A stretch of 64,000 nt of DNA. Origin: Leucoraja ocellata (taxonomy: Eukaryota). The translations under genes were made by a program, and so were the position numbers. Location of the stretch: contig JAWMAR010000026.1 of assembly GCA_036785375.1 (NCBI GenBank), positions 7,812,001 to 7,876,000 on the forward strand. Reading direction: 5' to 3'. Shown piece by piece: positions 33,633 to 64,000 of the stretch; the stretch's first letter is position 1; the number at the start of each line of letters is the position of its first letter. The notes below the pieces were generated by a model. That model was not told the DNA's origin. It did no database searches and saw nothing but the letters and a program-made list of their open reading frames with translations.

Positions 33633-36196
33633 CTGGTCAATTATTAATATTAATTACATAGAAACATAGAAACATAGAAAATAGGTGCAGGAGTAGGCCA
33701 TTCGGCCCTTCGAACCTGCACCGCCATTCAATATGATCATGGCTGATCATCCAACTCAGTATCCTGTACCTGCTTTCTCTCCATACCCCCTGATCCCTTT
33801 AGCCACAAGGGCCACATCTAACTCCCTCTAAAATATAACCAAATGAACTGGCCTCAACTACCTTCTGTGGCAGAGTTCCAGAGATTCACCACTCTGTGTG
33901 AAAAATGTTTTTCTCATCTCGGTCCTAGTGTTGTAAGTTTCTATAAGATCCCCCCTCAATCTTCTAAATTGTAGCGAGTACAAGCGGAGTCTATCCAGTC
34001 TTTCTTCATATGATAGTCCTGACATCCCAGGAATCAGTCTGGTGAACCTTCTCTGTACTCCCTCTATGGCACGAATGTCTTTCCTCAGATTTGGAGACCA
34101 AAACTGTACACAATACTCCAGGTGTGGTCTCACCAAGACCCTGTACAACTGCAGTCGAACCTCCCTGCTCCTATATTCAAATTCTTTTGCTATGAATGCT
34201 AACATACCAATCGCTTTCTTAACGGCCTGCTGCACCTGCATGCCTACTTTCAATGACTGGTGTACCATGACACACAGGTCTCGTTGCATCTTCCCTTTTC
34301 CTAATCGGTCACCATGTAGATAATAGTCTACTTTCCTGTTTTTGCCACCAAAGTGGATAACCTCACATTTGTCCACATTATACTGCATCTGCCATGGATT
34401 TGCCCACTCACCCAAAATTACTTATCTAGATTTTAAAAAATGGAATTTTGTCACCCGAAAAAGACGGTGAACATAGAGTTAGGGGGTAATATAGATCGAT
34501 GGGAATGATCATGTGCAAAGTCATGGGTTTATTGCGAATCATTATTAATTCGCCTTTTAATCCTAGCGTGTTTTCGGAAGTCTTCTTGCTGGTAAGGAAA
34601 TTGAATCTCCAGTTACCAACCTCTCCCAGTTGCTGGGGTTCATAACATTTTGACCTGGGAGTGAGCAACTACCAAGTACCCCGTGAAATTGAGTGGCCGT
34701 GAGGGCATCCCGATATTCAAACTGTCGGGATTCAGTTACCGGTGTATTTTTTTCAGTCTGGATAGTCGTTGTTTGACTAATTCAAGTTACAATAAACACG
34801 AATGGCGAACAGCTAACTGAATAGCTAACGGGGATGAATGAGTCCAGTGTACAAGCTTAGCTTTCATGGTAACAGGAAATTTCACAGGATCAATAATTAA
34901 CGGACAGAAAATAGAAATATAGAAAGAAAGTGTACAGCAATGTGTACTCGTGATGATCTCAGCCGGGGAATCATGCTGGACCAACAGCAAAATTCGTGAA
35001 AATTACAGAGAGACACAGCTATGGTAATAAAGAAATTATAATCTGTCTAGATTTCCAAAATAATGTCAAAGAGGTTGGCGACAAAATTAAAAAAAAAGAT
35101 CAGAGAATAGTAATTATCGACAGGTTGCAGAATTGATGGAAGGCAGGTTGTGGGAAAGAACGCAGACTAAAGTGCGGGTGAATCAAGAAAGGGCGCTAAA
35201 GTGCAACTGCTCACGGAAAGCAATGGGCGCAGTTGTGCCGATTTCTCCTGTCTTGTTTCCCGTCGTAGTAATCACTTTACCATGCATTGGTTTCTGCTTG
35301 GTCTGCGAGATGAAAATTAGGGAAAAACATTAGTTCAATTTTAAAGCTGCTTTGAATCTCACACAGACCCGAACGTTTTGCAGGATCAGAAATGAAAGTA
35401 ATCAAATTAATGGGCAGGTGCTTGTTTATATCAAAGATTGACACGAAGTGCTGGAGTACGTCAGCGGGCCAGGTCACGTCTCTGGGGAAATTGGATACCT
35501 GACGTTTCGGGTAGGGACNNNNNNNNNNNNNNNNNNNNNNNNNNNNNNNNNNNNNNNNNNNNNNNNNNNNNNNNNNNNNNNNNNNNNNNNNNNNNNNNNN
35601 NNNNNNNNNNNNNNNNNNNNNNNNNNNNNNNNNNNNNNNNNNNNNNNNNNNNNNNNNNNNNNNNNNNNNNNNNNNNNNNNNNNNNNNNNNNNNNNNNNNN
35701 NNNNNNNNNNNNNNNNNNNNNNNNNNNNNNNNNNNNNGAGCCGACGAAAAAACAGTGCAAATCGGGGCTGGCATCAGATGACAGGTAAGCTGGTTCCTGA
35801 TAGGTTGACTGTCGGCTAGGGACTGGTGAGAGCCCAAGAAGGTCCGATTTCGTATGTTAAAACGTACCTGTGCATACAGCGTCCTTTCTTGATTCACCCG
35901 CCTTGGAACTTTCCGGGGTTTGCTCAGATTTAGCGCAGCATAAGGCACCATCGCTTCACCCGCACGTTGCATGGACTGAACGAGAAAAGTATACATCTTT
36001 TATACAAAGGTGCATTGATTCTTGCGCAGAACGACACTATCAGGGTCTAAAACGGTTTCGAGGGCCCATTACATGAATAGTTCCAATGCCAATAACCTAT
36101 GCGCACGATGTCGATCATTCTCCTGCTCTAACATTACCCCAAAAAGCAAGTTAGATCAGATTAGCTCATTAAATCGCAGTTTGGGGATGGTGGGTG

Positions 36197-36227
<31 letters not shown>

Positions 36228-39200
36228 GCGACCCAAGCCGTATACGGCAATTGTTTTCTTCGTAAACGACTTTATTTGCTTATTCTCAGCATTTATATAC
36301 GCAAAGAAACATATTGCAGTCAACTGATTGAACGCGAACATTTTCTCTACTTCCCGTTTTTTCCATTTGATTTCACATCACAATTCAGCTTCTGTTTCTA
36401 AGTGAATGTCAGACTGTGCAGCAGCATTGGCCTGTCATCTTCTGAGGGGAGGCAGCAAAAAATGTATAGAAGTCTTAGCTCAAATTTACTAAGCGGTGTT
36501 TGAACTACAGCAATAGACACTATACAATAGGTGCAGGAGTAGGCCATTTGGCCCTTCGAGCCAGCACCGCCATTCAATGCGATCATGGCTGATCATCCCC
36601 AATCAGGACCCGTTCCTGCCTTCTCCCCATATCCCCTGACTCCACTATCTAACAGCCCAACAAAATATGTGGACTGTTTTGATGCCCTCACTTAAAGCAA
36701 GGGACATTGATACACAAGACTGTTCAGAGAATTTTCACTGAGATGCCAGCGGGTGTTTTGGGTTTCAATTTATGAGGAAAGACAGGACACTCCCCCCCCC
36801 CCCCCCCTCCCGAGAAGGAAAGGGGATCTATGTACTGCTGTTTTATGGGATTGACAGGATAAACACTCGGGGATGCTGATAGTCATGAATGAATTTTGGA
36901 GCCGCAGCAGCTTCCGGAAATGGGGATGGGTGGTGGTGGGGGAGGGGGGCATTGACATTGAAACGGGGAGTGAATTCGCCTATCAGAAATTGAGAAAGCA
37001 ACATGAAGATGAAACTCTGATTATATTTGTCACCAGCATGAGAATCACAATATATGCATGTATGGCGGAGGAATTGGACAAAGAATGTTGAATCAGCCGA
37101 AAGCCTGGGGAAATAGACTCGATTGGCTTAATGGTCACCTTTGGCTCCTGATATGATCCTGAATTTTGAATTCATCACTGAGATGTCGACAGCATGCTGG
37201 AACTGCAATTAGTATGTTTCGTGTGTTGTCCTGCGACTATGGCCATGGGCTTGGGAAGACGCTTCGAGTGAAACATAAATTAAATTATTTGTGGCCTGTA
37301 GTTACATGCTGTGCGTGCCAGGCAAATACGGCAGATATGCATCCGTGATAGGCACTCATGACTTTGCTCAGAATGTAAGAGCATTTAATAGACCTTGGGC
37401 ATTTTGTAGACAACTGGTACGATTTTTAGAAGTGAGTGCAATATATCAGCTTGGCAATATGGATTTTCATCTAGCATTCGTGTTAACGGACAAAACCCTT
37501 TGGACGGCTGTTACCGAGAGGCACTGGGAGCAATAAAACTGCTAATAAATTTGTCGTATAGAAGGCAAACGCAATATTTTAACTTTACTTATTTCATACA
37601 TACCAGTTGCTCAATAACATCGGATCTTTCTTCTTCCTTCCGCGTACCTGGTCAATTATGAATATTAATTACTTATCTAGATTAAATAATAGAATTTTTC
37701 ACCCGAAAAAGACGGTGGTGTGATAGAGTTAGATGTTAATATAGATCGATGGGGATAATCATGTGCAAAGTGATGGCTTTATTGCCGAATCATTATTAAT
37801 AATAGAGCAAATATGCCGATGCCTCTGCAATAGGTTCCCAACCAGTGACATGCTGCTCACCGGTCTGTATTTCCTGGAATATCTCCGCTTCGCTGCTGAA
37901 TCAAGTTTGCTGCTCCCCAGTCCTGCAGGGATTCGGCTGTGACTAGAGAAAATCTAATGATCAGCTCTTAATAGCCTGTGATAGGTTCCACCAAGCCATG
38001 GGATTTATCCACTTTAATGCTCTTCAAAGGCCCAAACACCACTTCCTTCTTGATGTTCAGCTGCCCAATATGTCACTTATCCGAACATTGATCTCACTGT
38101 GCTCCATACTCCGTAATGATTTTCCGTGATGAATAGAGATGCAGAGTTCTAATTCCTTGGAAGGTGCCAGTCCATGAGATATGGAGGAGTAAATGGATAT
38201 TAGAGAGAACTCGCACCATATGCGCTGATCGTCATAAAACACAATATCATAAAACACAAATGAAACACGGTTGAAGGCAGGAGACTGAAAACGGGAGACA
38301 TTATGCTAAGCACATTGACCACGGTCGATGTAACCAGGAGAGTTCTGGTGGGGCCGGTTTCAAAACATCCTGAAGAAAATGGGAACTATACATATAAGGA
38401 AAGTATAAATAAAGATCAAGCTCGGTCCCTTTGATCTCGTTATGAAAGATAAGGGATGACGACAAGGTTGTCTTTAAAATTAATGGAAGTTCTGAGAACA
38501 TTGATATGGAAAGAATGACGCGTCTTGTGGGAAAGATCAAAAACATAGGCGGTCATTAGAAGGTAGGACTAAAGAAACGTTACGTTAGAAAAAAATATTT
38601 GGGATATTGGAACCAAGGTGAGTTGGTGCAGCGAGTTGCACGCACGACATGGGAAGCCGAGCAGGCAAGCGAGAGAGAAATAAAAATGGTTAATGGTCTT
38701 AGATTTGTAGGAAATTGTGAGAAGGTACGAGAGGTGGGCGAACTCCGGCCTGCGCTGCAATCTAATCGGCTGCAATGAACAATAATGTTTATACCTTTGA
38801 GAGTTCCTATGTTTCCCTTTCTGGAGCTATAACACTTTGGGAAAAAATGCTTACATTATTTCTTACCTTTAATTTTCCTTGCAATACAACGCTTTGCAAT
38901 GACAAGTGCCAATAGCAACGATACAAGACCGCTCACTGCGCATATCGAAATCATGACGTAATTGACGTGATCTGTAAGATTGAAATACATCAGGTATACC
39001 GTATTGTTTTTATACAGATAGTTGTGTGTGCCTGGAAAACGTTGCCAGGGGTGGTGGTGTTGGAGGTAGAATCGAACGTGGGCTTTATGAGTCTTTTGTG
39101 GAGGCACATCGACATACAATGTGTGGATGGAAATAGATCACTTGCTGGGAGTGGAAATTATTTTAACTTGCATCATGTACGACCCGGACATGGCGGGATG

Positions 39201-42200
39201 AAGAGTCTGGTCCTGTGGTGTGCTGTTCTATATTATATGTCAAACAAATAAAACTGGCTTTTAGGCCTCATTTTATGAAACTATTCCTGTAAACGAGAAA
39301 GCCTGGTTTTCATACTTTACAAAAAAAAAAAGCTTTAAAAAGACCATCCGGAGTATTTGCTTTTTCCTTGTTAAAAGGAAACGCCAATATTAGCGATAAT
39401 ATTTAGTTGACACTTCAGATTAAATCGGAGACAGCAAACCGGCGGTCCGACACAGTTATATCCGCTTTAAAATTCAGGAATTTCAATGAGTATATTTTTA
39501 GTGTGTTACTTTATTTCAAGGTTCACATTGTTGGAAAATTCGTGACTTGTAGCAAGTTATGTCATGTTCAGGGAATGAGGTAGAACGTTTCAGCTCTGTG
39601 ACCTTTCGGCCATGAGCGGATAGTAGGTCGTGTATCCATCTTACACCTCTGCGCTGACTTACCTGGCTGTGGAAGCAGAATGGCAGAGCGAGATATGTTC
39701 ATCGGACAACGGGATCACGGGAAATGTTAGAATCGAACAATTGTCCCACGCAGTGGCCGGGAAATATTCGTGTGTTTGTTAGGGGAGTGCTGTCCTCAAA
39801 CACAAAATAATAGTAGACGCGACGAGGTAGTTGATATACTGCAGAGATTAGCAGGCTCGGATCAATTGCATTTTAAAACGTACGATGTGACTGTTCATGT
39901 GTAAGTTGAAACATACAGGCACATGCTTATATTTTGAGGAATATAGAAACCGGAAAACATATTACACTATTCTGGTGCACTGATAAAAGATTTAAGGCAG
40001 GTCGTGGAACTTTGGGCCTCATAGAAGCAGTGGACCCAAAAAGCACGTGATGCCGTGGTAAATGCTTGAAAATCACTACTTTTAATTTAGGTCTGTGCAC
40101 AGGTTGTTTGCGAGAATTATGAGATCATAGTGGCCGGTTCAGTGAAGAGTTGAGAGAAGTTTGGGGTCTTCTCGTTTGGGCAGAAATGAAGGGCAATTGG
40201 TCACGGGGGATGCTTTACTGGGGCAATTACAACCCATTTCCCCTGAAGAAAAAGGAAAACCAGCGGTTATACCGTATCGAGGAGATTTGTAGGAGTAGCT
40301 TTCTTCAGATTCGGAGTGCAGCGCCTGACATGTTGGAGGTAGCAGCTCCCAATGAAATTTGTCAAAAGACAATTTTGCGTGTACTTGATGAGAGCATTTG
40401 AGGCCACATGGAATTCCAGCGGATGTGATTATAATAGAGGGATCTTCAAGGTTGAAAGTTTCAGGCCAGGACTAACGGTAATTCGTATCATGCGACATTT
40501 TGTGAAATCTCAAACTTTACGTATATTTCTATGGTAATAGAGATACACAGTCTTACCTGTGTCGGAGTTGATGACAACGTAAGTAGCTGCTGCAGGAACA
40601 CGGTGAGTTACATGATTCACAAGGCAGGTGTAAACGGTGCCGGTCGGGCCATACTGTGTCACCTTTAATCGGCTGGAAGCTTCATACAATCCATCTGCGG
40701 TGGGCTTGTTGCTATTAACTAAAACCGTTGTAATTTTTATACCATCTTTATACCAGATGAAGCTGATATCCTTTGGGTAAAAGGGAGATGTCGCGCAGAG
40801 AATAAAGAAGGATTCCGTCTTCTCGGGAATTCCAGAGTAAATTTTCAGTGGAGTTGGCGGAACTAGGGAATGAAGGTCAGTGATACGTTTATATTAGTAG
40901 AAAATAAGTGCGCGGAGTGTGAATGGTTAATGTGAGGCGGATTCGCGCGTTCATTGTGCTTTTATATTAATGTAAACTGAATCTTTATACCCGATTTGAC
41001 ATCAGAGATGTCGTTTACTCTCAATTCCTCCGTCTACGCCGCATCTGCGCGCAAGATGATGTGTTCCATACCAGGACATCTGAGATGCCTTCATGCAATA
41101 GGAAACAGGGGTTCCATCATAAACGATGCCCTCACTGGTGTCTCCTCGATATCCCGCAGCTCCGCGCTTGCCCCCCCCCCCCCCTCCCCCAGTCGCAACA
41201 GGGGCATAGTCCCCCTAGTCCTCACCGTTCACCCCATCAGCCGTCGCATACAGCACATGATTCTCCGGCATTTTCGCCACCTCCAACGGGATCCCACCAC
41301 TAGCCAACACTTTAACTCCCCCTCCTATTCCCACACTGATCTTTTTGTCCTGGGACTCTTCCATTGTCAAAGTGATGTCCACGGTAAATTGGAGGAACAA
41401 CACCTCGTATTTCGCTTGGGCAGCTTAAGCCCCAGCGGTATGAATATTCATTTCTAATTTCAAGTAACTCTTGCCTTCGCTCTCTTTCCAGTTCTCCGAC
41501 TAATCTGACTGTCCTCGTATACATTTTATCTCTGTTTACCTTGTTGTTCCCTTCTCCTAGCTAACAATGATCTATTCTACATTCTACATTCTACATTCCC
41601 CCTTTGTCTCGTATTGACACCACACATTTCCTTATCTCTGTGTCTCCGTCTCCCCTACCAGTCTGAAGAAAGGTCTCGACCCGAAACGTCGCCCATTCCT
41701 TCTATCCAGAGATGCTGCCTGTCCTGCTGAGTGACGCCAGCATTTTGTGTCTATCTTCGGTTTAAACCAGCATCTGCAGTTCCCACAACATGATGGTAAA
41801 TGTGTTGTTCTTGCCACACTGAGGTCTCGGGGAAATGCCAAACATGGAAATGTTGAATAAAAAATGTGAATACAAAATTCTGAAAAATGTAATTTAGTTG
41901 TGATATGAGAATTTTGGGTGGACTGTTCGGGATACCTTGCAGGTCATTTGAAATGTTGATGGAAATTTAGGTTCCGATTCTTCGCTATTTTACGTCCGCA
42001 ACATTAGCGTCCAAACTTATTCATGTGGAGGCCACGGCTACAATTGAATGACTCTAACGTCCAATATATAAACAAGCACTTGATCTAACGCAGGCGAAAT
42101 GGTACATCGTATGGGGTCACCCACTACCATAGTTGCATATGTCTCTTGCGTATTCACGGCGGGCACTACAATGCTACCTGTATTGTACTGATGTTATGCT

Positions 42201-42966
42201 GTGCTTTGGAAATAAACATCCAATACATAAGATACGTTTTGATTAATATCGCTAACACGTCTTGTTATACATATCAGCATGCAGACCATCTATGGTATGA
42301 TTTACCAATTGCAATATTTATAATATTCATCTGGCTGTATGAATGATTAAAATCTGAAAACAACACGTTACTTGCAGGGCAATATCACAGTCGCGAAATC
42401 GCATTCGTTACACGTTTAAATATACTTACCCAACACAACTAATGTCGATCCGGTTCCGTTGCCAACTAAAGTGCCCCGGCGGGTGATGGTACAATAATAT
42501 ACTCCGGCATCCTGTCGGCTCACATTGGCTATTTTCAGGAAGCCACTGAATTTAGTGCTGACGCCGGAAATCGTTCTCCCGTCAGGGTCTGGGATGAAAA
42601 AATCATTTTCACCCTGTTTCCACCAATGTACGCTTACGCTGGGCCCTTCACGAAAGAAGGGAAGAGAGCAGTGAAACGAAGCATGTTGGCCCGTCGAGAC
42701 ATTTATTGCTTGAGGAAATTGATTTACTTCGTCTGCAGTTTCCCCAGAGCCTAAAGGAAAGAAAAACAGGCCAGATTAGGAATATTTCACCCCAGAAGGT
42801 TAAACGCAAGAGCAGGGCTAATTGTAGATGGAAATAAAGACACGCATTAAAGAAACCTTGAATAGATGTAGGTTTTAGTCTGTATAAACGGTTTATGGGG
42901 ATGCCATGTACCTGTGAAAATTATCCCCCAAAAAATGAAACAGCGAAGTGCAATACTGGACAACAT
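31512..42966 (-). CDS. IgSF gene B: leader-VJ-C1-TM inhibitory-type receptor with ITIM tail (tail exons duplicated)
   Basis: L 42912-42966 ([18 protein letters not shown]), V 42430-42750, C1 40557-40862, TM 38867-38971. Tail cassette 1: 37604-37647, 35868-35975, 35183-35302. Tail cassette 2: 33589-33632, 32031-32138, 31512-31679. Introns are GT-AG and phases are compatible (1,1,1,1,0,0). Confidence 0.9.
33658..34415 (-). mobile_element. CR1 3' fragment inserted about 24 nt upstream of a tail-exon acceptor, 6-bp TSD AATTAC
   Basis: aattac at 33652-33657 and 34416-34421. The empty site is seen in the paralogous cassette at about 37667-37680. Confidence 0.85.
35183..37647 (-). CDS. Gene B cytoplasmic cassette 1 (three exons)
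   Basis: 37604-37647 (G)[14 protein letters not shown]; 35868-35975 [36 protein letters not shown]; 35183-35302 [39 protein letters not shown]. An N gap lies in the last intron. Confidence 0.75.
38867..38971 (-). CDS. Gene B transmembrane exon (neutral TM)
   Basis: 105 nt: (D)[34 protein letters not shown]. Acceptor tcttacag, donor gtaag. Confidence 0.9.
40557..40862 (-). CDS. Gene B C1-set exon
   Basis: 306 nt: (V)[40 protein letters not shown]...[12 protein letters not shown]...[26 protein letters not shown]. Confidence 0.93.
41005..41790 (+). mobile_element. Penelope-like remnant in the gene B V-C1 intron (paralog 61570-62045)
   Basis: LRLRRIC..., [27 protein letters not shown] motifs and a ctgaaga...gaaacgtc terminal repeat. 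Confidence 0.75.
42430..42750 (-). CDS. Gene B VJ exon
   Basis: 321 nt: (G)[106 protein letters not shown]. Strong polypyrimidine acceptor, donor gtaagt. Absent from the ORF track. Confidence 0.93.
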
Positions 42967-43949
42967 TCTGCAGCAAGTGATGACAGGACGTGTGGAGCAG
43001 TGAACGTATCTGAAGGTTGAATTGTCAGACGATGAAGCGCGTCACTCCTTCTGTGATTGCAGCGCGGCTCTTGTCGATGTGGCGAGACTTAATTTTACTT
43101 GCATTGCTGTCAACAGCGCCACAATCGGCTGTGGACTTTCACTGAATGAAGAGAAAGCAATACACCAAACAAATATAACGTAGATGAGCTCTAAAATCCT
43201 GCGTTTTGCATCTAGTTGGGCTAAATTGACTCCCCGCCTCCCCAATCAAACCACACACCCCAACCCTAGCAGTCCCATTCCGCCATCCCAACGTCATCAC
43301 CCCGGATCGCTACCATCCCTGACCACGACCCACCGCTCCCCCTCCCCTCACCGCACCGCCCATTTCGTCCCTTCTCGCTTCCACTCCAATAATCAGCGAG
43401 TCCTTGTGCTAACACAAGCTATGATGACGACATTTAAGCGCTAATCCCCATTTTTGTAATTCCCCTGCTCTCCATACTGAATTTAGATTGATCTTCCGCG
43501 CAGGATGAAGAGAAAAGTCCTCATTTTGTTCAGTTAGTCTCTGCAAAAACATCGGTACACTTGTGCAATGATAGCGGAAGTTTGCGTCATTTCAGCAGAA
43601 AAATCTGCGAAATCATTTCAGATAAGATTGGTGAGACCCATTGGTCTATAGTTTAGCAAAGAAATAGATAACGCATTCTTAAAGTTCGTAACAGAGGGAG
43701 GTATTCGCCATTCAATAGAGATTGCTGGTGAAACAGCGTCGGATTTAACAGGAAACAACCATAAATTGCTTCACCGCTGCTTCTGAGGCATTCGTTCTTC
43801 TGTTGTCGGCGTTTCTGCTTTCGCCACCACCGAAAAGCTCTCAGTGTTACGTCGGTTTGGTGAAACGGTTTTGTATTATTCAGTGAGAAAATCCATAATC
43901 GACGAGGCGGGCACGGTGAAACATATAGCAGGGGACCGGGGGTCAAATT

Positions 43950-45610
43950 AGATGGATGAAGTGAGTAAAATCCAGGTTAGCCGGGAAGTGGTGTTAGGTA
44001 GATTGAATGGATTAAAGGCCGATAAATCACCAGGACCAGATAGGCTGCATCCCAGAGTACTTAAGCAAGTAGCCCTAGAAATAGTGGGTGCATTAGTGAT
44101 AATTTTTCAAAATTCTTTAGATTCTGGAGTAGTTGCTGAGGATTGGAGGGTAGCTAATGTAACCCCACTTTTTAAAAAGGGAGGGAGAGAGAAAACGGGG
44201 AATTACAGTCCAGTTAGTCTAACATCGGTAGTGGGGGAACTGCTAGAGTCAGTTATTAAAGATGGGATAGCAGCACATTTGGAAAGTGGTGAAATCATTG
44301 GACAAAGTCAGCATGAATTTATGAAAGGTAAATCATGTCTGACGAATCTTATAGAAATGTTCGAGGATGTAACTAGTAGAGTGGATAAGGGAGAACCAGT
44401 GGATGTGTTATATCTGGACATTCAGAAGGCTTTCCACAAGGTCCCACATAAGAGATTAGTATACAAACCTAATGCACACAGTATTGGGGGTTCAGTATTT
44501 ATAGATAGAGAACTGGCTGGCAGACAGGAAGCAAAGAGTAGGAGTAAACGTGTCATTTTCAGAATGGCAGGCAGTGACTAGTGGGGTACCGCAAGGCTCA
44601 GTGCTGGGACCCCAGCTATTTACAATATATATTAATGGTTTGGACGAGGGAATTGTATGCAACATCTCAAAGTTTGCGGATGACACGAAGCTGGGGGGCA
44701 GTGTTAGCTGTGAGGAGGATGCTAGGAGGCTGCAAGGTGACTTGGGTAGGCTGGGTGAGTGGGCAAATGCATGGCAGATGCAGTATAATGTGGATAAATG
44801 TGAGGATATCTACTTTGGTGGCAAAAACAGGAAAGTAGGCTATTATCTGAATGGTGGCCGATTAGGAAAAGGGGAGATGCAACGAGGCCTGGGTGGCATG
44901 GTACACCAGTCATAAAAAGTAGGCATGCAGGTGCAGCAGGCAGTGAAGAAAGCCAATGGTATGTTAGCATTCATAGCAAAAGGATGTGAGTATAGGAGCA
45001 GATAGGTTCTACTGCAGTTGTACAGGGTCTTGGTGAGACCACACCTGGAGTATTGCGTACGGTTTTGGTCTCCTAATCTGAGGAAAGACATTCTTGCCAT
45101 AGAGGGAGTACAGAGAAGGTTCACCAGACTGATTCCTGGGATGTCAGGACTTTCATATGAAGAAAGACTGGATAGACTCGGCTTGTACTTGCTAGCATTT
45201 AGAAGATTGAGGGGGGGATCTTATAGAAACTTACACAACTCTTAAGGGGTTGAACAGGCCAGATGCAGGAAGATTTTTCCCGATGTTGAGGAAATCTAGA
45301 ACAAGGGATCACAGTTCATGGGTAAGGGGGAAATCTTTTAGGACCGAGATGAGAAAAATATTTTTCACACAGAAAGTGGTGAATCTCTGGAATTCTCTGC
45401 CACTGAAGATAGTTCTGGCCAGTTCATTTGCTGTAATTAAGAGGTAGTTAGATGTGACCCTTGTGGCTAAAGGGATCAGAGGGTATGGAGAGAAGGCAGG
45501 TACAGGATACCGAGTTGGATGATCAACCATGATCATATTGAATGGCGGTAATGCTTGAAGGGCCGAATGGCCTACTCCTGCACCTATTTTCCATGTTTCT
45601 GTGTTTCTAT
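43950..45610 (+). mobile_element. CR1 LINE RT half upstream of gene B (same insertion at 63730-64000 upstream of gene C)
   Basis: KSPGPDRLHPRVLK, SGVPQGSVLGPQLF, KFADDTKLGG; same 5' junction (ggggaccgggggtcaaattagatggatga) in both paralogs. Confidence 0.9.
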
Positions 45611-53700: not shown

Positions 53701-54645
53701 TTGGGAGTGCATATTATTTTACAGAAATTATAATTTAGGTGCCTACCTTTACAAAGCATATGCAAAGACAGGGAGCACAGTTGCTAAACGCATGGATACC
53801 GAAACTTACTTGAACATAACTTTGTCAATCATTTGCAATCCATTTCACCCCAAGTGTTGAAGGTGAAGGGCTCAGTTGGTTAGGAGTTTTGACGTAAAAT
53901 CAGTGCTTCATGCTTGTAATATAGTAATCTCGTTCTTTCTCTGAGGGTTGTTGCAGCTTTTTGTCAGAGAATGGACGAGCTAATAAGTAATTACACAAAT
54001 AACAATACATCACTTTGAGCACGGACACTACTTGGGATCCCATTCTGAATAGATTACATCAGCACCTCGCATTTGCTTTATTGGCTGTTAGTTGTCAGTG
54101 GCATTATCCGTACAATTGTTTGCTCTCTTTTCTTGTTTCCTGCCGTAACGAGCGGAGCGTAGATCACTTTAGCATGCATTGGTTTCTGCTTGGTCTACAA
54201 GATGAAAATTAGGGGGAAGAACATTAATTCATTTTTAAGTTGCTTTAAATCTAATGGAGACGCGAGAGCATCGTAAGATCAGAAATTATTACAACAGGCT
54301 GCCAACTAAAAGTTATAAAAATGAACGGCAGATACTGGTTTATACCAAAAATAGTGCTGGAGTGAGTCAGCGGGTCAGGCAGCATATCTGACGAAAATGG
54401 GCAGGTGACTCTTGGNNNNNNNNNNNNNNNNNNNNNNNNNNNNNNNNNNNNNNNNNNNNNNNNNNNNNNNNNNNNNNNNNNNNNNNNNNNNNNNNNNNNN
54501 NNNNNNNNNNNNNNNNNNNNNNNNNNNNNNNNNNNNNNNNNNNNNNNNNNNNNNNNNNNNNNNNNNNNNNNNNNNNNNNNNNNNNNNTGGGGAGGCGGAA
54601 CTGAGGCGAAGAAAAAACAGGACCAATCAAGGCCGGCAACACTCC

Positions 54646-54730
54646 CTAAACTAAATTAAACTAAGCTCATCTAAACTAAACTAAACGAAATATATCTAAA
54701 CTAAACTAAACGAAATTAAACTAAACTAAA
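54646..54730. repeat. (CTAAA)n microsatellite
   Basis: Imperfect pentamer array abutting the ITIM-exon relic of gene C. Confidence 0.85.
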
Positions 54731-54900
54731 AATAAGGCACAATCGCTTCCATAGACAAAACGAGAAATCTTCTAAACAAAGGTGAATTGATTCTTGCGGA
54801 GAACGACATAATCAGGCTCTAAAATTGATTCGATGGCCCATTACAGGAATAGAAGTGTCTATCAATTCTGCTGCTCCAACAGTACTAAAAAAACGAGTAA

Positions 54901-56513
54901 TAGAGCCCCCCATAATGTTTGGGACAAAGACCCATCATTTATTTAATTGACTCTGTATTACACAATTTGAGATTTGTAATAGAAAAAAAATCACATGTAG
55001 TTAAAGTGCATATTGTCAGGTTTTATTCAAGACCATTTAATACATCTTGGTTTTACCATGTAGAAATTACAGCTGGTTTATACATAGTCCCCCCCATTTC
55101 ATGCCACCATAATGTTTGGGACACATGGCTTCACAGGTGTTTGTAATTGCTCAGGTGTGTTTAAGGGGGTTCTCAGCACCTAGTCTATCCTCCAGTCTTT
55201 CCATCACATTTGGAAACCTTTATTGCTGTTTAACAACATGAGGACCGAAGATGTGCCAATGAAAGTCAAAGAAGCCATTATGAGTCTGAGAAACACGAAT
55301 AAAAATGTTAGAGACATCAGCCAAACCGTAGGCTTACCAAAATCAACTGTTCAGAACATCCTTAAGAAGAAAGAGTGCATTTTTGACCTTAATAATCGCA
55401 AAGGGACAGCCAGGCCATGGAAGACCTCCACTGCCGATGAGAGAAGAATTTTCTCCATAATAAAGAAAAATCCCCAACCACCTGTCCGAAAGATCAGAAA
55501 CACTCTTCGGGGGTCAGGTGTGGATTTGTCAATGACCTCTCTCCGTGGAAGACTTCATGAACAAAAATACAGAGGCTGCACTGCAAGATGCAAACGACTG
55601 GTTAGCCGCAAAATTAGGATGGCCATGTTACAGTTTGCCAAGAAGTACTTAAAAGAGCAACCGCAGTTCTGGAAAAAGGGCAGATGAGACAGATGAGAGG
55701 AAGATTAAGATATCAGAGTGATGGCAAGAGCAAAGTATGGAGGAGAGAAGGAATTGCCCAAGATCCAATGCATACCACCTCATCGATGAGCCAGTACCTG
55801 GGCATGTATGGCTGCTGAAGGTACTGGCTCACTTATCTTCATTGATGCTACAACTGCTGATGCTAGGAGCAGAATGCATTCTCAAGTGTATAGACACATC
55901 CTATCTGCAAAATATCAAACAAATGCATCAAAACTGGCCGGCAGTTCATTCTACAGCAAATCAATGACCACAAACATATTGCTAAAGCGACAAAGGAGTT
56001 TTTCAAAGCTAAAAAAGGTCAATTCTTCAGTGGCCGTCAATCACCCGATCTGAACCAAATTGAGCATGCCTTTTATATGCTGAAGAGAAAACTGATGGGT
56101 ACTAGCCCCCAAAACAAGCATAAGCTAGAGATAACTGTAATACAGGCCTGGCAAGGCATCGCCAGAGAAGACACCCAGCAACTGGCGATGTCAACGAATC
56201 GCTGACTTCAAGCAGTCATTGCATGCAAAGGATATGCAACAAAATACTAAACATGACTACTTTCATTTACATGACATTGCTGTGCACCACACATTATGGT
56301 GCCCTGAAATGGGGGGAGGGAACTATGTATAAACACTGCTGTAATTCCGACATGGTGAAACCAAAATGTATAAAAATGCACTTTTTTAAAAATCTGACAA
56401 TGTGCACTTTAACTACATGTGATTTTGTTTTCCATTAAAAATCTCAAATTGTGGAGTACAGAGGCAAATAAATGAGTGATGGGTCTTTGTCCAAAACATT
56501 ATGGAGGGCACTG
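54901..56513 (+). mobile_element. Tc1/mariner transposon (IR/DR type), full length, broken transposase
   Basis: About 230-bp imperfect inverted repeats, each with two ccataatgtttgggaca-type direct repeats; right end cactg|TA. Transposase remnants VRDISQTVGLPKSTVQNILKK...TARCK...FAKKYLKEQPQFWKK and SPDLNQIEHAF. The empty site (gttagatc) is present in both gene B cassettes. Confidence 0.92.
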
Positions 56514-56812
56514 TAGATCTGATTAGCTAAAACAATCGCCGTGTGGGGATGGCGGGGGAAGGTTTCCTAGCCGTAAATGACCCTTATTATCTTCGTAAAC
56601 GTCTTTGCTTTATCTTAGCATTTACAAACGCAAATAAGCAAATTACAGCCAACTGTTTGAACGGAAATAATCGCGTACGCGATTTTTCATTTCATTTCAC
56701 ATCAAAATTCTGTTTCCAAGTGGTTGTCAGTGTGCAAAGTAGCAAAGACGTCGTCTGTTTCGATGCGCTTAAGGAACACTGTCGCCTGGATCCATTTTAG
56801 AGCCTGATAGTG

Positions 56813-56948
56813 TTTAAGAGGGAACTGCAGATGCTGGAGAATCGAAGGTTATACAGAAAAGCTGGAGAAACTCAGCAGGTGCAGCAGCATCTATGGAGCG
56901 AAGGAAATAGGCAACGTTTCGGGCCGAAACCCTTCTTCAGTCTGAACC
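56813..56948 (-). mobile_element. 136-bp Penelope-terminal-repeat insertion with a 16-bp flanking direct repeat
   Basis: ttagagcctgatagtg at 56797-56812 and 56949-56964; the insert is nearly identical to the reverse complement of about 430-558. Confidence 0.8.
56913..56940 (-). ncRNA. Minimal hammerhead-ribozyme-like motif
   Basis: CTGAAGA-a-GGGT-TTCG-GCCC-GAAAC-GTT on the minus strand, with palindromic AACGTT. Confidence 0.45.
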
Positions 56949-58439
56949 TTAGAGCCTGATAGTGCCGTTCTTCGCAACAAAGTTACACGACACAGTTCAG
57001 AGAAGGTCCACTGGGATGATTGCGGGTGCATTGGGGTTTCTTTCTATGCGCAAATAGAGGGCAGCTTGATTCTGTACTGATTGGACGTCCTACCACTGTC
57101 TTCGAGTCTTCACATGGTAATTACTGGGCATGCAGTGGGTGCCAGGCAAAAACGGCACATATATGCATCCGTGGTAGGCATTCCGGTTTTTGCTCTGGAT
57201 GTACGAGCATTTAACAGACCTTAGACATTTTGTTGACAAGAGGCACGAATTTTTAGAAGTGAGTGCAATATATCATCTTGGCAAGATGGGTTTTCATCTA
57301 GCAATCGTGTTAACGTACAAGACCCTTTCAACGGCTGCTACCGAGAGGTATTGGTAGCAACGATACTGCTATCTAATTTCCGTTGTATTGAAGGCAAACA
57401 CAGATATTTTAACTTTACTTCTTCCATGGGCGTGTAAATGTGAAATGTTACTTCAGATTAATCTAAGGGCAATTAAATGCATCCCAGACTACCGACAGTT
57501 ATTTTTAGGACCATGCTTCATTTGTGAGTACATACCATTAATATCAGACATTTCTCATTCCTTCTGGGTACCAGGTAAATTAAAAATACTAATTTCTTCT
57601 CAAGTTACAAAAATGGCATTTTGTCACCCGAAAAAAAGCGGTTCTCATAGAGTTGGTGGTTAATATAGATCGATGGAGACGATCATATGCAAAGACATGG
57701 CTTTATCCCGAATCGATATTAATATGCTGATGTCGTTAGCCTTTTAATTCTAGTCAGTGTTTTTTCGGGAGCCAGGCCGCTGGTAATTAAATAGAATCTC
57801 CAGTTAGCATTCTCTCCCGATTGCTGGGATTCATATAATTTGACCTGGCAGAGAGCAAATACGGAGAGGCAGGGCTTTGACCATGAAAACAAATGTAAAC
57901 TGTCTAGATTTCCAAAGGAATGTCAGATAGGTTGGCAACATATGACACATGAAAAAAGATCTGCGAATACGTAATTAGAGACAATTTGCAGATCGATTCG
58001 TGGCTGGCTGCGGGAAAGAGACTAAACCTCAACTGCTCACAGAAAGCAATGGGCGCAGTTGTGTTGCTTCCAGTCCTGCAAATTGTTCGAACCAGAATCA
58101 AACCTGATTCCTGAAGTATGGGTGACACATAATTGGACGGGTGACACATAATTGATCTTCAGTACTGAGGGGAACAGCACGATACAGTAGGATATTAGTA
58201 TACTTAAAAATGGGCGGAATGGCGAATATGAATACTTTCATGGAAGGGAGACCACTCATTGTAACATAAAACATAAATACACAGCATAGGAAAATGCCCC
58301 TCGGCCCACAATGGCTTTGTCGACCGAGATGACAAGATAAATTAAGCTATTTTGCCCAAGAAAAGAGACATCACGAGCTTCCCTTTCTATAGCTATAGCT
58401 CCCTGAACAAAATGCTTAATTGGGTTAAATTTTCTTTAC

Positions 58440-58538
58440 CTTTATTTTTTCTTGCAATACAACATGATGCAACGAGAAGAGGCAGTAGTAACGTTACTAA
58501 ACCGCACATTATCCTGACACAATTGATGATGTAAATAC
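58440..58538 (-). CDS. Gene C transmembrane exon with intramembrane Arg
   Basis: 99 nt, phase 1-1, same acceptor context as the gene B TM exon (atttcaatcttacag). Arg (AGG) aligns to Cys of gene B. Confidence 0.85.
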
Positions 58539-61500
58539 CTGTAAGATTGAAATACATAAGATACATATGAATATCGTAGCTCCTGAAATCGGAAAATCCC
58601 TCTCCCTTGAATCTGATGTATTACGCTGCAAGCTCAGAAATCTACTAATAATTTGAACATTTGCGAAAAGCAAACAAATACAATTGACAGATTTGAATTT
58701 AATAAATTTAATAAAATTGATGTTTGGGAGGAAGGTTGTCAAAGGTTACAGCAGGCATTATATCACTGTCTAGTTACCTTTTTTGTTTCTCTTAGTGTAC
58801 TCACGAAATGTCTTCATATTTTCCTTAATATTATTTGCTAGAATTATCCATTGCCTTTTTTTTGCCCGTTTGATTTGCTTCTTAATTATGCTCCTCAGTC
58901 TCCTAAACTCCTTCAAGGATACGCTTCATCCCAGCTGCCTATAACTGGCCCATACCTCCTTTTTTCCTGACCAGAGACTCAAATTTGCATGTCACCTGGG
59001 CTTCTTTACTCTCATTTGCCTTACCTATTACTTTAGCATGAACATGCATGCTTAGAACTCTCGCCTTTGCACTTTGAAGAGCATTCCATTTCCCCAAAGC
59101 TGCTTTGGCTGCAAATAACCTACTCAACTCAATCGTTGTAAGTTAAAATGATGCAAAGTGCTGGATTAACTCTGCTGGTCAATAAGTATCCTGGTTGGGT
59201 CTGCTCCAAGCCTCCACCAAGCGTTTGTAAATTCCTGTCGAATACCATCAAAGTTGACCTTGCACCAGCTTCGGACTTTAACCTTGTGGACGAACCCTGT
59301 GTTGATTCAAAACTATGTTCTCGCAAATAGAACTGTAGTTACTGGTCCCTAAATGTTCACCCACCAACATTTGTGGAGTCAAAGGGTAATTCAATGTGGA
59401 AACAGGCCTTTCAGCCTAACTTGCCCACGCGGACCAATATAGCCCATCCACACTAGTTCCACTTGCCTGCCGTTTGGCCCATGACCTCCTAAAACTATCC
59501 TTTCCATGCGCTGGTCCAGATTTATTTTTGCCCTCTAATTTTTTATTCCCCTCCTCTGAGAAAAATACCGTGCGTTTACCCCATCTGTTCCCCTAATGCG
59601 GAGAACTTCTATAAGATCACCGCTCATCCTTCTGCAGCACAAGGAATAAAGTCTGAGCCAGTTCAATCGCTCCCTATAACCCAGGCTCTCGAGTCCTGGT
59701 AACTCCCTCGTAAATCTTCCCTGCACCCTTTACAGTTTAACAACATAATTCCTGTAACAGGATGGCCATAACTGAACACAATACTCCAAATGTTGCCTCG
59801 CCAATGTCCTGTGCAATTGTAACACGACCTCTTAACTTCTATACTCAATATTATGAATGATGAAGGCTACTGTGCCGAACGCTTTCTTGCTCATGCTTTC
59901 AGGCGTACTTTTATGAACCTATTCATATAAGTGAGAAATAATGTTTTTCATACTTTACTACGAGAACAACAGCTTTAAAAAACGAACCGGTGTTCACTTA
60001 TTCCTTATTAAAATGAAAGTTCAATATGAGAGATACTCCTGATTAAATCGGAGACAGCAAACCGTCTGTCCGACTCACAAATTATATTCGCTTTAAAATT
60101 CAGGAATGTCAATGAGAATATTTTCAGCGTGTTACTTTATTTGAAGCTTTAAATTATTTGCAACATTTCTGATCTGTATGAAGTAATGTCATGTTCAGGG
60201 AATGGGAGACACCGTTTCAGCTCCTTGGACTTTCGGCAAGGAGCAGATACTAGCTCATGTATCCATCTTACACCTCTGCGTTGACTCATCCGGCAGTGGA
60301 GACAGGGCGGCAGAGCGAGATATGTTAGTCGGATATCGGGATCACGGCATTTTGATTAGAATCAAACAATAGACCCTCGCGGTGGCGGGGAATGGTTTCT
60401 GTGTTTGTTATGGGAGTGCTGTTATCCTACATTAAAAAAAAAAAACAGGAGACGTGAGAAGGTCGTTGTTAGACTGGACAAATGAGCCAAGATATGCTTA
60501 TATTTTGAGGAATTTGGAAGCATACGGGAAAGAGGAAATATTACACAATTCTGGTAAGCTGATAAAATATTTAAGGCAGATCGTGGAACTTTAGACCTCA
60601 TGGATGAAGCAGTGGATCCAAAGGACAGGATACCGTGACAAATGCTTGAAAATCACTAATTTTTAATTTAGGTCTATGCACAGGTTGTTTGCGAGAATGA
60701 TAGATGAGATCATTGTGGCTGGTTCAGTGAAGAGTTGGGAGAAGTTTGGGGTCTTCTCGTTTGGGCAGAAACGAAGGGCAGTTGGTCACGGGGGATGCTT
60801 TACTGGGGCAATTACAACCTATTTCCCCTGAAGAAAAAGGAAAACCAGCGGTTATACCGTATCGAGGAGATTTGTGGGAATAGTTTTCTTGAGATTCGCA
60901 GCTCCCAATTAATTTGTCAAAATACAATTTTGCGTGTACTTGATGAGAACATTTGCAGCCACATGGAAATCGAGCGGATGTGATTATAATAGACGGATCT
61001 TCATGGTTGATAGTTTCAGGCCCGGACTAACGGTAATTCATATCATGCGACATTTTGTGAAATCTCCAGCTTTACGTATATTTCTATGGTAATAGAGATC
61101 TTACCTGTCCTGCCTGTGTCGGAGTTGATGACAACGTAAGTAGCTGCTGCAGGAACACGGTGAGTTACATGATTCACAAGGCAGGTGTAAACGGTGCCGG
61201 TCGGGCCATACTGTGTCACCTTTAATCGGCTGGAAGCTTCATACAATCCATCTGCGGTGAGCTTGTTGCTATTAACTAAATCCGTTGTAGTTTTTATACC
61301 ATCTTTATACCAGATGAAGCTGATATCCTTTGGGTAAAAGGGAGATGTCGCGCAGAGAATAAAGAAGGATTCTGTCTTCTCGGGAATTCCAGAGTAAATT
61401 TTCAGTGGAGTTGGCGGAACTAGGGAATGAAGGTCAGTGATACGTTTATATTAGTAGAAAATAAGTGCGCGGAATGCGAATGGTTAATGTGAGGCGGATT

Positions 61501-62968
61501 CGCGCGTTCATTGTGCTTTTATAATAATGTAAACGGAATCTTTATACCCGATTTGAAATCAGAGATGACGTTTACTCGTGCTGTCTAGTGAAGAAAAACA
61601 TGATGGTAAATGTATATCCCACTCTGCGTCCTGTAGAGACTGTATCCCCTATTCCCAACTCCTCCGTCTACGCCGCATCTGCGCGCAAGATGAGGTGTTC
61701 CATACCAGGACATCTGAGATGCCTTCATGCAATAGGAAACAGGGGTTTTCCCCCTTCCATCATAAACGATGCCCTCACTGGTGTCTCCTCGATAACCCGC
61801 AGCTCCGCGCTTGCCCCCACCCCCCCCATCCCCCCAGTCGCAACAGGGACATAGTCCCCCTAGTCCTCACCGTTCACCCCATCAGCCGTCGCATACAGCA
61901 CATGATTCTCCGGCATTTTCGCCACCTCCAACGGGATCCCACCACTAGCCAACACTTTAACTCCCCCTCCCATTCCCACACTGATCTTTTTGTCCTGGGC
62001 CTCTTCCATTGTCAAAGTGAGGTCCACCGCAAATTGGATGAACAATTGAATGACTCTAACGTCCAATATATAAACAAACACTTGTTCTAACGCAGGCGAA
62101 ATGGTACATCGTATGGGGTCACCCACTACCATAGTTGCATATGTCTTTTACGTATTCACGACGGGCACTACAATGCTACCTGTATTGTACTGATGTTATG
62201 CTGTGCTTTGGAAATAAACATCCAATACATAAGATACGTTTTGATTAATATCGCTAACACGTCTTGTTTATACATATCAGCATGCAGACCATCTATGGTA
62301 TGATTTACCAATTACAATATTTATAGTATTCATCTGGCTGAATGAATCATTAAAATCTGAAAAAACACGTTACTTGCAGGGCAATATCACAGTCGCGAAA
62401 TCGCATTCGTTACACGTTTAAACATACTTACCCCACACAACTAATGTCGATCCGGTTCCGTTGCCAACTAAAGTGCCCCGGCGGGTGATGGTACAATAAT
62501 ATACTCCGGCATCCTGTCGGCTCACATTGGCTATTTTCAGGAAGCCACTGAATTTAGTGCTGACGCCGGAAATCGTTCTCCCGTCAGGGTCTGGGATGAA
62601 AAAAGTATTTTCACCCTGTTTCCACCAATGTACGCTTACGCTGGGCCCTTCACGAAAGAAGGGAAGAGAGCAGTGAAACGAAGCATGTTGGCCCGTCGAG
62701 ACATTTACTGCTTGAGGAAATTGATTTACTTCGTCTGCAGTTTCCCCAGAGCCTAAAGGAAAGAAAAACAGGCCAGATTAGGAATATTTCACCCCAGAAG
62801 GTTAAACGCAAGAGCAGGGCTAAATGCAAATGGAAATAAAGACACGCATTAAAGAAACCTTGAATAGATGTAGGTTTTAGTCGGTATAAACGGTTTATGG
62901 GGATGCCATGTACCTGTGAAAATTATCCCCCAAAAAGAGAAACAGCGAAGTGCAATACTGGACAACAT
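58440..62968 (-). CDS. IgSF gene C: leader-VJ-C1-TM receptor, near-identical ectodomain to gene B, Arg in TM, short tail (activating-type candidate)
   Basis: L 62914-62968, V 62432-62752, C1 61105-61419 (9-nt in-frame extension at the donor), TM 58440-58538 (G)[32 protein letters not shown]. All open and GT-AG. The 3' end is uncertain: intron read-through gives [15 protein letters not shown], and splicing to 54194 gives DQAETNAC*. Confidence 0.85.
59395..59890 (-). mobile_element. Old CR1 3' fragment in the gene C C1-TM intron (absent from gene B)
   Basis: [28 protein letters not shown]...SGDLIEV. Confidence 0.75.
61105..61419 (-). CDS. Gene C C1-set exon
   Basis: 315 nt; [15 protein letters not shown] and YTCLVNH motifs. 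4 substitutions versus gene B plus a 9-nt extension. Confidence 0.92.
62432..62752 (-). CDS. Gene C VJ exon
   Basis: 321 nt, 4 nt different from the gene B V exon (I>V, D>T, L>W). Ends [23 protein letters not shown]. Confidence 0.93.
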
Positions 62969-63729
62969 TCTGCAGCAAGTGATCACAGGGCGTGTGGAGC
63001 AGTGAACGTATCTGAAGGTTGAATTGTCAGACGATGAAGCGCGTCACTCCTTCTGTGACTGCAGCGCGGCTCATGTCGATGTGGCGAGACTTAAGTTTAC
63101 TTGCATTGCTGTCAACAGCGGCACAATCTGCTGTGGACTTTCACTGAATGAAGAGATAGCAATACACCAAACAAATATAACACAAGCTATGATGACGACA
63201 TTTAAACGCTAATCCCCATTTTTGAAATTCCCCTGCTCTCCATACTGAATTTAGCTTGATTTTCCGCACAGGATGAAGAGAAAAGTCCCATTTTGCTCAG
63301 TTAGTCTCTGCAAAAACATCGGTACACTGTTGTGCAATGATAGCGGATGTTTGCATAATTTCAGCAGAAAAATCTGCGCAATCATTTCAGATAAGATTGG
63401 TGAGACCCATTGGTCTATAGTTTAGCAAAGAAATAGATAATACATACTTAAAGTTCATAACAGAGGGATGTATTCGCCATTCAATAGAGATTGCAGGTGA
63501 AACTGCGTCGGGTTTAACAGGAAACAACCATAAATTGCTTCACCGCTGCTTCTGAGGCATTCGTTCTTCTGTTGTCGGCGTTTCTGCTTTCGCCACCACC
63601 GAAAAGCTCTCAGTGTTACGTCGGTTTTGTGAAACGGTTTTGTATTATTCAGTGAGAAAATCCATAATCGACGAGGATGGCGGTGGGCGGGCACTGTGAA
63701 ACAGGTAGCAGGGGACCGGGGGTCAAATT

Positions 63730-64000
63730 AGATGGATGATGTGAGTAAAATCCAGGTTAGACGGGAAGTGGTGTTAGGTAAATTGAATGGATTAAAGACC
63801 TATAAATCACCAGGGCCAGATAGGCTGCATACCAGAGTACTTAAGGAGGTAGCCCCAGAAATAGTGGGTGCATTAGTGATAACTTTTCAAAATTCTTTAG
63901 ATTCTGGAGTAGTTCCTGAAGATTGGAGGGTAGCTAATGTAACCCCACTTTTTAAAAAGGGAGGGAGAGAGAAAACGGGGAATTACAGTCCAGTTAGTCT
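63730..64000 (+). mobile_element. CR1 LINE (runs off the window), paralog of the 43950 copy
   Basis: Near-identical to 43950-44220. Confidence 0.88.

Follow-up and report, generated by a model that had tools for sequence, protein, structure and literature searches.

We analyzed a 64,000-nucleotide stretch of the 3.4-Gb Leucoraja ocellata genome (contig C26, positions 7812001–7876000; hereafter the window), with a focus on two linked genes that lie 20 kb apart. Gene C is an immunoglobulin-superfamily gene with leader (L), V-set (V), C1-set (C1), and transmembrane (TM) exons whose tail of ITIMs (immunoreceptor tyrosine-based inhibitory motifs) is dead, and gene B is its ITIM-bearing twin. Gene C is probably a live activating partner of gene B. 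Judging from the comparison of the two genes with their relatives, gene C would stem from a duplication of the ITIM gene B, with an Arg then added to the outer end of the TM helix and the tyrosine-bearing tail lost, and it is predicted to signal via an FcR-gamma or zeta-type adaptor. The original prediction for this locus had argued for functional conversion rather than decay of the whole gene, on the ground that L, V, C1, and TM remain open. Functional conversion is still the best reading, but the argument from an open ectodomain is weak since those exons lie in a gene-conversion tract. The reading is instead backed by the derived TM Arg, by a shift of phase that arose early in tail exon 1, and by the coupling of Arg gain and tail loss in three more lineages of the same cluster. 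The Met>Arg change and a 12-nt loss in the TM exon, an 8-nt loss in tail exon 1, a 1-nt loss in tail exon 3, and the duplication of the gene B tail had all been missed before.

The window contains three V-C1-TM genes (A, B, and C, all on the minus strand), and 12 such genes lie across the surrounding 264 kb; the labels D, D', E, E', F1–3, and G1–2 used below are our own names.

Gene B keeps an inhibitory tail

Genes B and C have the layout of paired receptors: they are linked and near-identical in the ectodomain, gene B carries in-frame ITIMs together with an uncharged TM core, and gene C has no in-frame ITIM. Gene B (38867–42966, minus strand) is open through all four exons (L 42966–42912, V 42750–42430, C1 40862–40557, and TM 38971–38867). 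Its tail, which encodes VPYAAL and VIYAPV in frame, is tandemly duplicated (31512–37647, minus strand). By alignment, the second copy (31512–33632) is complete, with exons 1b, 2b (VPYAAL), and 3b (VIYAPV), and the first (35250–37647) consists of exon 1a (44 nt), exon 2a (VPYAAL), and a truncated exon 3a that lost its ITIM Tyr by an in-frame deletion. The broken exon 3a is also present in the Amblyraja radiata model P0002. Because the tail is duplicated and its first exon 3 is broken, alternative splicing could give gene B either one or two ITIMs.

Lesions in the tail of gene C

The lesions predicted in the tail of gene C were all found, two of them with a revised reading. Tail exon 1, aligned to gene B, survives as a remnant (57536–57573, minus strand; exon 57571–57536) with TG at 57573–57572, where gene B has the AG of the acceptor, and with an in-frame TGA at 57557–57555. 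This stop had been read as a change from GAA. The ancestral codon is instead GGA, which is present in gene D, a relative described below, and contigs of organisms B and C have the GGA letter at 57557. A second sample of organism A, by contrast, retains TGA, so the stop is recent. The exon measures 36 nt, not 44, and this 8-nt loss, an early change, puts the ITIM exons out of phase.

Tail exon 2 (54731–54757, minus strand, by alignment to exon 2 of gene B) starts at 54755, also has its acceptor changed from AG to TG, and ends after VPY, with a TTTAG-type array in place of the remainder (54646–54730, minus strand; Tandem Repeats Finder period 5, 17 copies). It is 12 nt shorter than its counterpart in gene B, in frame; the difference itself stands, and its description as a deletion in gene C is uncertain because a Mobula homologue is also shorter than gene B there. 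Between exons 1 and 2 lies the predicted Tc1 element (54902–56513, plus strand), a decayed DNA transposon with the marks of the Tc1/mariner group: terminal inverted repeats, a TA duplication flanking each side, and a helix-turn-helix match (Pfam HTH_Tnp_Tc3_2, E 3e-11). Its repeats differ at 30/224 columns (13%), and the insertion site is empty in gene D and in both tail copies of gene B.

Tail exon 3 (54028–54194, minus strand) has an intact acceptor and encodes VIYAPL (54167–54150) in phase 0. The TM exon is in phase 1, so splicing between the two gives the tail DQAETNAC*, as had been predicted, and a 1-nt deletion near 54117 removes the last Tyr motif. AATAAA signals are found at 53600 and 53543. 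Four routes out of the TM exon (read-through, exon 1, a cryptic exon 1 acceptor, and exon 3) all stop within 15 residues and include no Tyr. We also considered, and rejected, a novel exon for the tail in the stretch from TM to exon 3: six strong acceptors were checked, and a plausible exon was found only at exon 3. Exon 3 is likely still used as an eight-codon terminal exon, with the TM exon spliced straight to it to give an eight-residue tail; the predicted Leucoraja erinacea RefSeq model P0001 is open, has the same TM, and ends by the same junction. In the horn shark, RefSeq isoforms P0010 and P0025 differ by a skip from TM to the last exon that yields a short ITIM-less tail, the splice route proposed here for gene C.

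It is highly improbable that these lesions are errors of assembly. Short-read contigs from another sample of the same organism run through exon 1 and TM unbroken and also carry the stop, a contig of organism C spans the exon 3 deletion gap-free, gene D has the same indels, and P0001 shares the TM and the ending. The read check thus covered exon 1, TM, and exon 3. The exon 2 array and the Tc1 junctions fall outside it, since repeats were skipped, and a 1-nt frame break in a zeta-like exon elsewhere in the genome suggests that indel errors may exist. The read-contig comparison concerned 40 of 654 differences, so an absence of differences elsewhere in it proves nothing.

Gene D preserves an earlier state of the tail

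A DNA search with the exon 3 region of gene C returned an 88% copy at C26:7943638–7944318, about 78 kb away, in gene D. Gene D (C26:7943600–7954570) is a chimera in which a D'-type L-V-C1 is followed by a C-type intron, an Arg-bearing TM, and an out-of-phase tail. Its V and C1 are ~31–40% identical to those of gene C and have ~90% DNA identity to D', and the gene is open from the leader through a short Tyr-free tail. A search for a named D-type protein with a C-type TM returned two shark proteins only.

Three features are common to genes C and D: an Arg in the TM, a tail exon 1 of 36 nt, and the loss of 1 nt in exon 3. The 36-nt exon is derived, since B, D', E, F1, F3, and G2 have a phase-switching exon of 44 nt; and because D has all three of these features, ITIM loss predates the block duplication that separated the two tails. 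In gene D, the acceptor of exon 1 is intact, the codon at the site of the stop is GGA, and the Tc1 site is empty; exon 2 was lost by another route. Late decay therefore accounts for most of the lesions first listed in gene C, among them the changed acceptor, the stop, and the Tc1 insertion. Non-coding divergence between C and D is 12.7%, and the 13% divergence of the Tc1 repeats is consistent with insertion soon after the block duplication.

This earlier state, preserved in gene D, allows the sequence of steps to be worked out within a single genome. In the order that we propose, the Arg gain and the losses of 8 nt from exon 1 and 1 nt from exon 3 would have come first, in whichever sequence among themselves. 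Next, a block F-E-D-C was likely duplicated; a deletion in one of the copies likely fused the ectodomain of D with the C-type intron, TM, and tail. Neutral decay in gene C (Tc1, exon 2 loss, acceptor change, and stop) would have followed.

A derived arginine in the TM exon

The 99-nt TM exon of gene C (58440–58538, minus strand) lies outside the conversion tract. It is open with intact AG and GT sites, and is 78% identical to that of gene B and 88% to that of gene D. At the outer TM end, codon AGG (58513–58515) encodes an Arg that is also present in D and in L. erinacea P0001. The same column has Met in gene B (ATG) and in two Mobula ITIM-type proteins, and Ser or Ala in shark ITIM-type homologues; the alignment shows the TM Arg of gene C to be a derived Met>Arg change. 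Compared with gene B, the exon has also lost 12 nt in frame (four residues), and two basic residues at the inner boundary are replaced. A genome-wide DNA search with the region matched only gene C itself, the D copy (88%), and gene B (70%).

Around the Arg, gene C reads NCVR, with an Asn three residues before it. Candidate partners exist, in that the genome encodes FcR-gamma-like and zeta-like TM exons with Asp (two matches above the Pfam cut-off). A predicted complex of the gene C TM exon with two FcR-gamma-like TM copies received a score of 0.05 and a mark of 0.34. The zeta-like exon (C175, near 1500 of the examined stretch) has its frame broken by 1 nt between the N-terminal part and the Asp helix, which may be an error or a real lesion.

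TM Arg and tail loss are coupled across the cluster

We classed 11 of the 12 V-C1-TM genes in the 264 kb by TM charge and tail, using the consensus motifs for the ITIM and for the immunoreceptor tyrosine-based switch motif (ITSM); gene A was left out (uncharged TM, tail not found). All five genes with a TM Arg (C, D, E', F2, and G1) lack an in-frame Tyr tail, and all six without it (B, D', E, F1, F3, and G2) keep one (Fisher P 0.002; 0.005 if the pair C/D is taken as a single case). The Arg genes represent four separate lineages, and L, V, C1, and TM are open in all five. Canonical ITIMs are present in B, E, F1, F3, and G2; the Tyr motifs of D' are ITSM-like.

E', F2, and G1 each lie beside an uncharged ITIM-bearing twin, and the direction of their Arg changes was read against these twins in the cluster, not against outgroups. 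E' (TM at C26:7907131) has Gly>Arg relative to E, a stop at the TM exon end, and a broken next Tyr exon. G1 (TM at C26:7993032) differs from G2 by a Gly>Arg change, has a GT>GC change in the donor of its 44-nt exon, and shows no match to the Tyr exons of G2. F2 (TM at C26:7986731) differs from F1 and F3 by a Leu>Arg change, and its 44-nt exon has a 1-nt loss and a weak donor. Three of the four tail Tyr of F2 are changed. As proof of selection these losses are weak (P 0.02–0.08), and they may be later decay because the first tail exon has a 1-nt deletion. As in B/C, ectodomain synonymous divergence (dS) is low (E'/E 0.02, F2/F3 0.045) and flanks or tails are more divergent. P0003, a stingray paralogue whose ectodomain is of the same type, has a TM Arg one column off and no ITIM, and is possibly a further independent case.

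On balance, these comparisons favor a scenario in which the cluster of non-rearranging VJ-C1 receptors of skates switched from inhibitory to activating four separate times by one route, with one activating module grafted onto the unrelated ectodomain of gene D. The proposed route, which we hold jointly with the four switches and with the same modest leaning, would combine an outer-TM Arg with a knockout at the TM end or in the 44-nt phase-switch exon, and a re-matching of the ectodomain to that of the inhibitory twin through conversion.

A number of observations weigh against an activating gene C. The two-by-two table was classed post hoc, and dying genes would couple odd TM changes with tail loss too. 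Ratios of non-synonymous to synonymous divergence (dN/dS) for the ectodomains of neighbor pairs are mixed (1.56, 0.89, and 0.21), and their pooled signal (P 0.003) is due to G1/G2. The ratio is 1.1 for the TM exons of C and D, and an open TM exon on both branches has P ~0.16 under neutral decay. For D against D' it is 0.57 (P 0.125). As to the helix itself, the best 19-residue Kyte-Doolittle window begins directly after the Arg of gene C, which places the Arg at the edge of the hydrophobic core. The run of uncharged residues from this Arg to the inner basic cluster is 20, against a corresponding distance of 15–18 residues for E', F2, and G1, so that on this measure C and D make the weakest case among the Arg genes. 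The ITIM-type homologues P0004, P0007, and P0025 have a juxtamembrane Arg at a distance of 22, two residues further out, so the Arg of gene C may sit at the membrane surface.

Such a geometry would suit an alternative that we regard as unlikely, in which gene C is expressed but does not signal, serving as a tail-less decoy that competes with gene B for ligand, and the Arg marks nothing more than a shifted membrane boundary. The core after the Arg is 20 residues long, the loss of four TM residues is offset by the loss of two inner basic residues, and a juxtamembrane Arg is present in ITIM-type homologues; in the horn shark, moreover, the short-tailed isoform P0010 and the ITIM isoform P0025 have similar TMs. 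A decoy, however, needs no Arg, whereas Arg and tail loss occur together in four lineages, with the Arg of E', F2, and G1 lying deeper in the helix, and the stingray paralogue P0003 again has a TM Arg and no ITIM.

Gene conversion between B and C

The leader exon of gene C (62914–62968, minus strand, 55 nt) is open with a GT donor and shares 53/55 nt with gene B. The single V exon (62432–62752, minus strand), which has a J-like end, is open and differs from that of gene B at four positions (Pfam V-set, E 1.5e-10), and the C1 exon (61105–61419, minus strand) is open with four substitutions and 9 extra nt (Pfam C1-set, E 8.9e-12). The extra nucleotides lie at the exon end (61102–61113), which is longer than in gene B. 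Together with TM, these exons are open with intact GT-AG sites, as had been predicted.

L, V, and C1 are 98.5% identical to gene B and lie inside a conversion tract (60750–64000, reaching the window end; ~40160–44220 in gene B), in which 150-column windows are 92–99% identical, against 77–82% beyond it. Within the tract, B and C differ at 10/682 coding sites and 83/1989 non-coding sites (P 0.0006), and at 1/160 synonymous sites (P 0.018); nine of the ten exon differences are protein-changing. With exons closer than flanks, at synonymous sites too, repeated exon-focused conversion fits better than plain purifying selection. The B and C ectodomains also collapse together in contigs of three organisms, which a single older conversion event could explain as well. 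Conversion that keeps L-V-C1 of gene C matched to gene B would mean that both see one ligand, with opposite signs.

Because these exons sit in the tract, their open frames in gene C prove little. The original prediction had recognized that its reading would fail if the ectodomain were intact only through conversion onto a dead gene, and half of that, namely recent conversion extending to ~60750, was found. In a simple simulation with half of the divergence on the C branch, a dead gene would keep L-V-C1 open since the conversion with a probability of ~0.15, and the TM exon open on the C branch with a probability of ~0.39. The B and C ectodomains differ by one synonymous and nine non-synonymous changes (P 0.47), without a dN/dS signal of purifying selection in gene C. 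In SIGLEC11/16, conversion involved a non-functional copy, according to the accessible part of PMC5701461. We nevertheless judge it improbable that gene C is dead or dying and looks intact through overwriting by gene B. All lesions lie 3' of the TM donor in 5/5 Arg genes, the exons in the tract are closer to gene B than the introns are, and the L. erinacea orthologue is open and modelled with the TM-to-exon 3 ending. L-V-C1-TM of gene D would be open with P ~0.001 if that gene were dead on its branch, although its fusion to the tail could be recent.

Three further points qualify the reading of gene C as live. P0001 is a prediction with an implausible N-terminus. At the C1 donor, a place of difference between genes B and C, a contig of organism C has gaps of 1 nt at positions 61102 and 61106; they probably come from a B-type contig. 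Lastly, a search among sequencing runs listed no RNA run carrying the sequence, which speaks for neither side, and no transcript of gene C was seen in RNA run X24 (organism B, ~5% read), an uninformative result: the V, C1, exon 1, and exon 3 bins had no depth, the TM bin was near zero, and B-type reads would cover V and C1 too.

Related genes within and beyond the window

The named proteins nearest to the V exon of gene C are RefSeq models of Leucoraja erinacea (96%) and Amblyraja radiata (94%), followed, after the skate models, by rays and a catshark (52–57%). Gene A (window ~18325–21400, minus strand), the third V-C1-TM gene, has an uncharged TM, and a search for a tail exon with a Tyr motif found none. 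About 40 further related V exons lie on C26 (8.42–8.50 Mb and 11.96–12.15 Mb), C578, C1270, and C105; the search behind this count gave 51 matches, mostly at 28–43% identity. C578 and C1270 resemble two copies of one cluster.

Comparison with known receptor systems

The mechanism proposed here is known, and the family and lineage are apparently undescribed. The cluster was not described in the literature that we searched, of which coverage was limited, and supplementary gene lists could mention it. Mammals offer documented cases in which activating receptors arose repeatedly from inhibitory ones; in the skate cluster the outcome repeats in four lineages side by side, with clear internal controls. 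If true, the scenario would define, for cartilaginous fish, a set of paired receptors whose building blocks are antigen-receptor-like VJ-C1 domains, and would provide candidate markers for skate natural killer-like or myeloid cells.

NKp30/NCR3 has a single VJ domain and no C1, and is linked to the major histocompatibility complex; gene C, with its C1-set exon, does not fit this architecture. SIRP ectodomains are V-C1-C1, and SIRP-beta uses a Lys with DAP12. The cluster resembles SIRP in its automatic RefSeq name ("SHPS-1-like"), in a match to PDB 2wng (E 4e-14), in a V and C1 ectodomain, and in having ITIM-bearing and short-tailed members. The cluster does not fit the SIRP architecture, having one C1 exon per gene, not two; we infer that the two C1 domains in model P0002 reflect a merge of C and B.

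A similar domain architecture is that of UrIg and UrIg2, non-rearranging elasmobranch VJ-C1 proteins in which, as in the cluster, a single-exon VJ is followed by C1 (PMC12227049 and PMC10751288, accessible parts). The best PDB match is UrIg2 (9dmx, E 6e-17). Unlike the cluster, UrIg2 has nine C1-type domains, and the accessible parts of the same two papers describe neither pairs of ITIM and Arg members nor this cluster.

The signaling end of gene C resembles that of CD89, NKp30, and NKp46, which couple to FcR-gamma or zeta: an outer-TM Arg, an Asn three residues before it, and a short tail without a Tyr motif. In CD89, to follow the accessible part of PMC13107469, the motif is QNLIR, with the Arg near the N-terminal TM end and the Asn one turn above, and the receptor binds FcR-gamma via this Arg. 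In gene C, by contrast, the Arg lies at the edge of the hydrophobic core, and the link to an adaptor is a prediction.

The ectodomain has its own parallels. KLRC, KLRI, and PIR show ectodomain-only homogenization of opposing pairs, as far as the accessible part of PMC3210942 goes. Like these and SIGLEC11/16, B and C have near-identical ligand-binding exons, old and divergent TM and tail, and a sharp boundary in the pre-TM intron. Unlike in KLRC, KLRI, and PIR, repeated conversion after speciation is only a possibility for B/C, which one older event could explain as well.

The closest precedent for the switch itself is that of activating KIR and Ly49 receptors, in which, per the accessible part of PMC2213150, a charged TM residue was gained and ITIMs were lost, with later recombination spreading the signaling domain. 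The cluster shares with them the gain of a basic TM residue, the loss of ITIMs, and the transfer of a signaling domain onto another ectodomain (gene D); as in macaque KIR3DH, treated in the same part of that paper, a frameshift removes the ITIMs, there by exon loss. Gene C would work as these pairs do without belonging to their families. The cluster differs from KIR and Ly49 in an unrelated ectodomain, made of one V exon with a J-like end and a C1 exon, in its cartilaginous fish host, in an outer-TM Arg rather than a central Lys, in having four lineages within one cluster, and in being known here from sequence alone. If our reading is true, the rule of KIR and Ly49 would extend to the oldest lineage alive today that has adaptive immunity.

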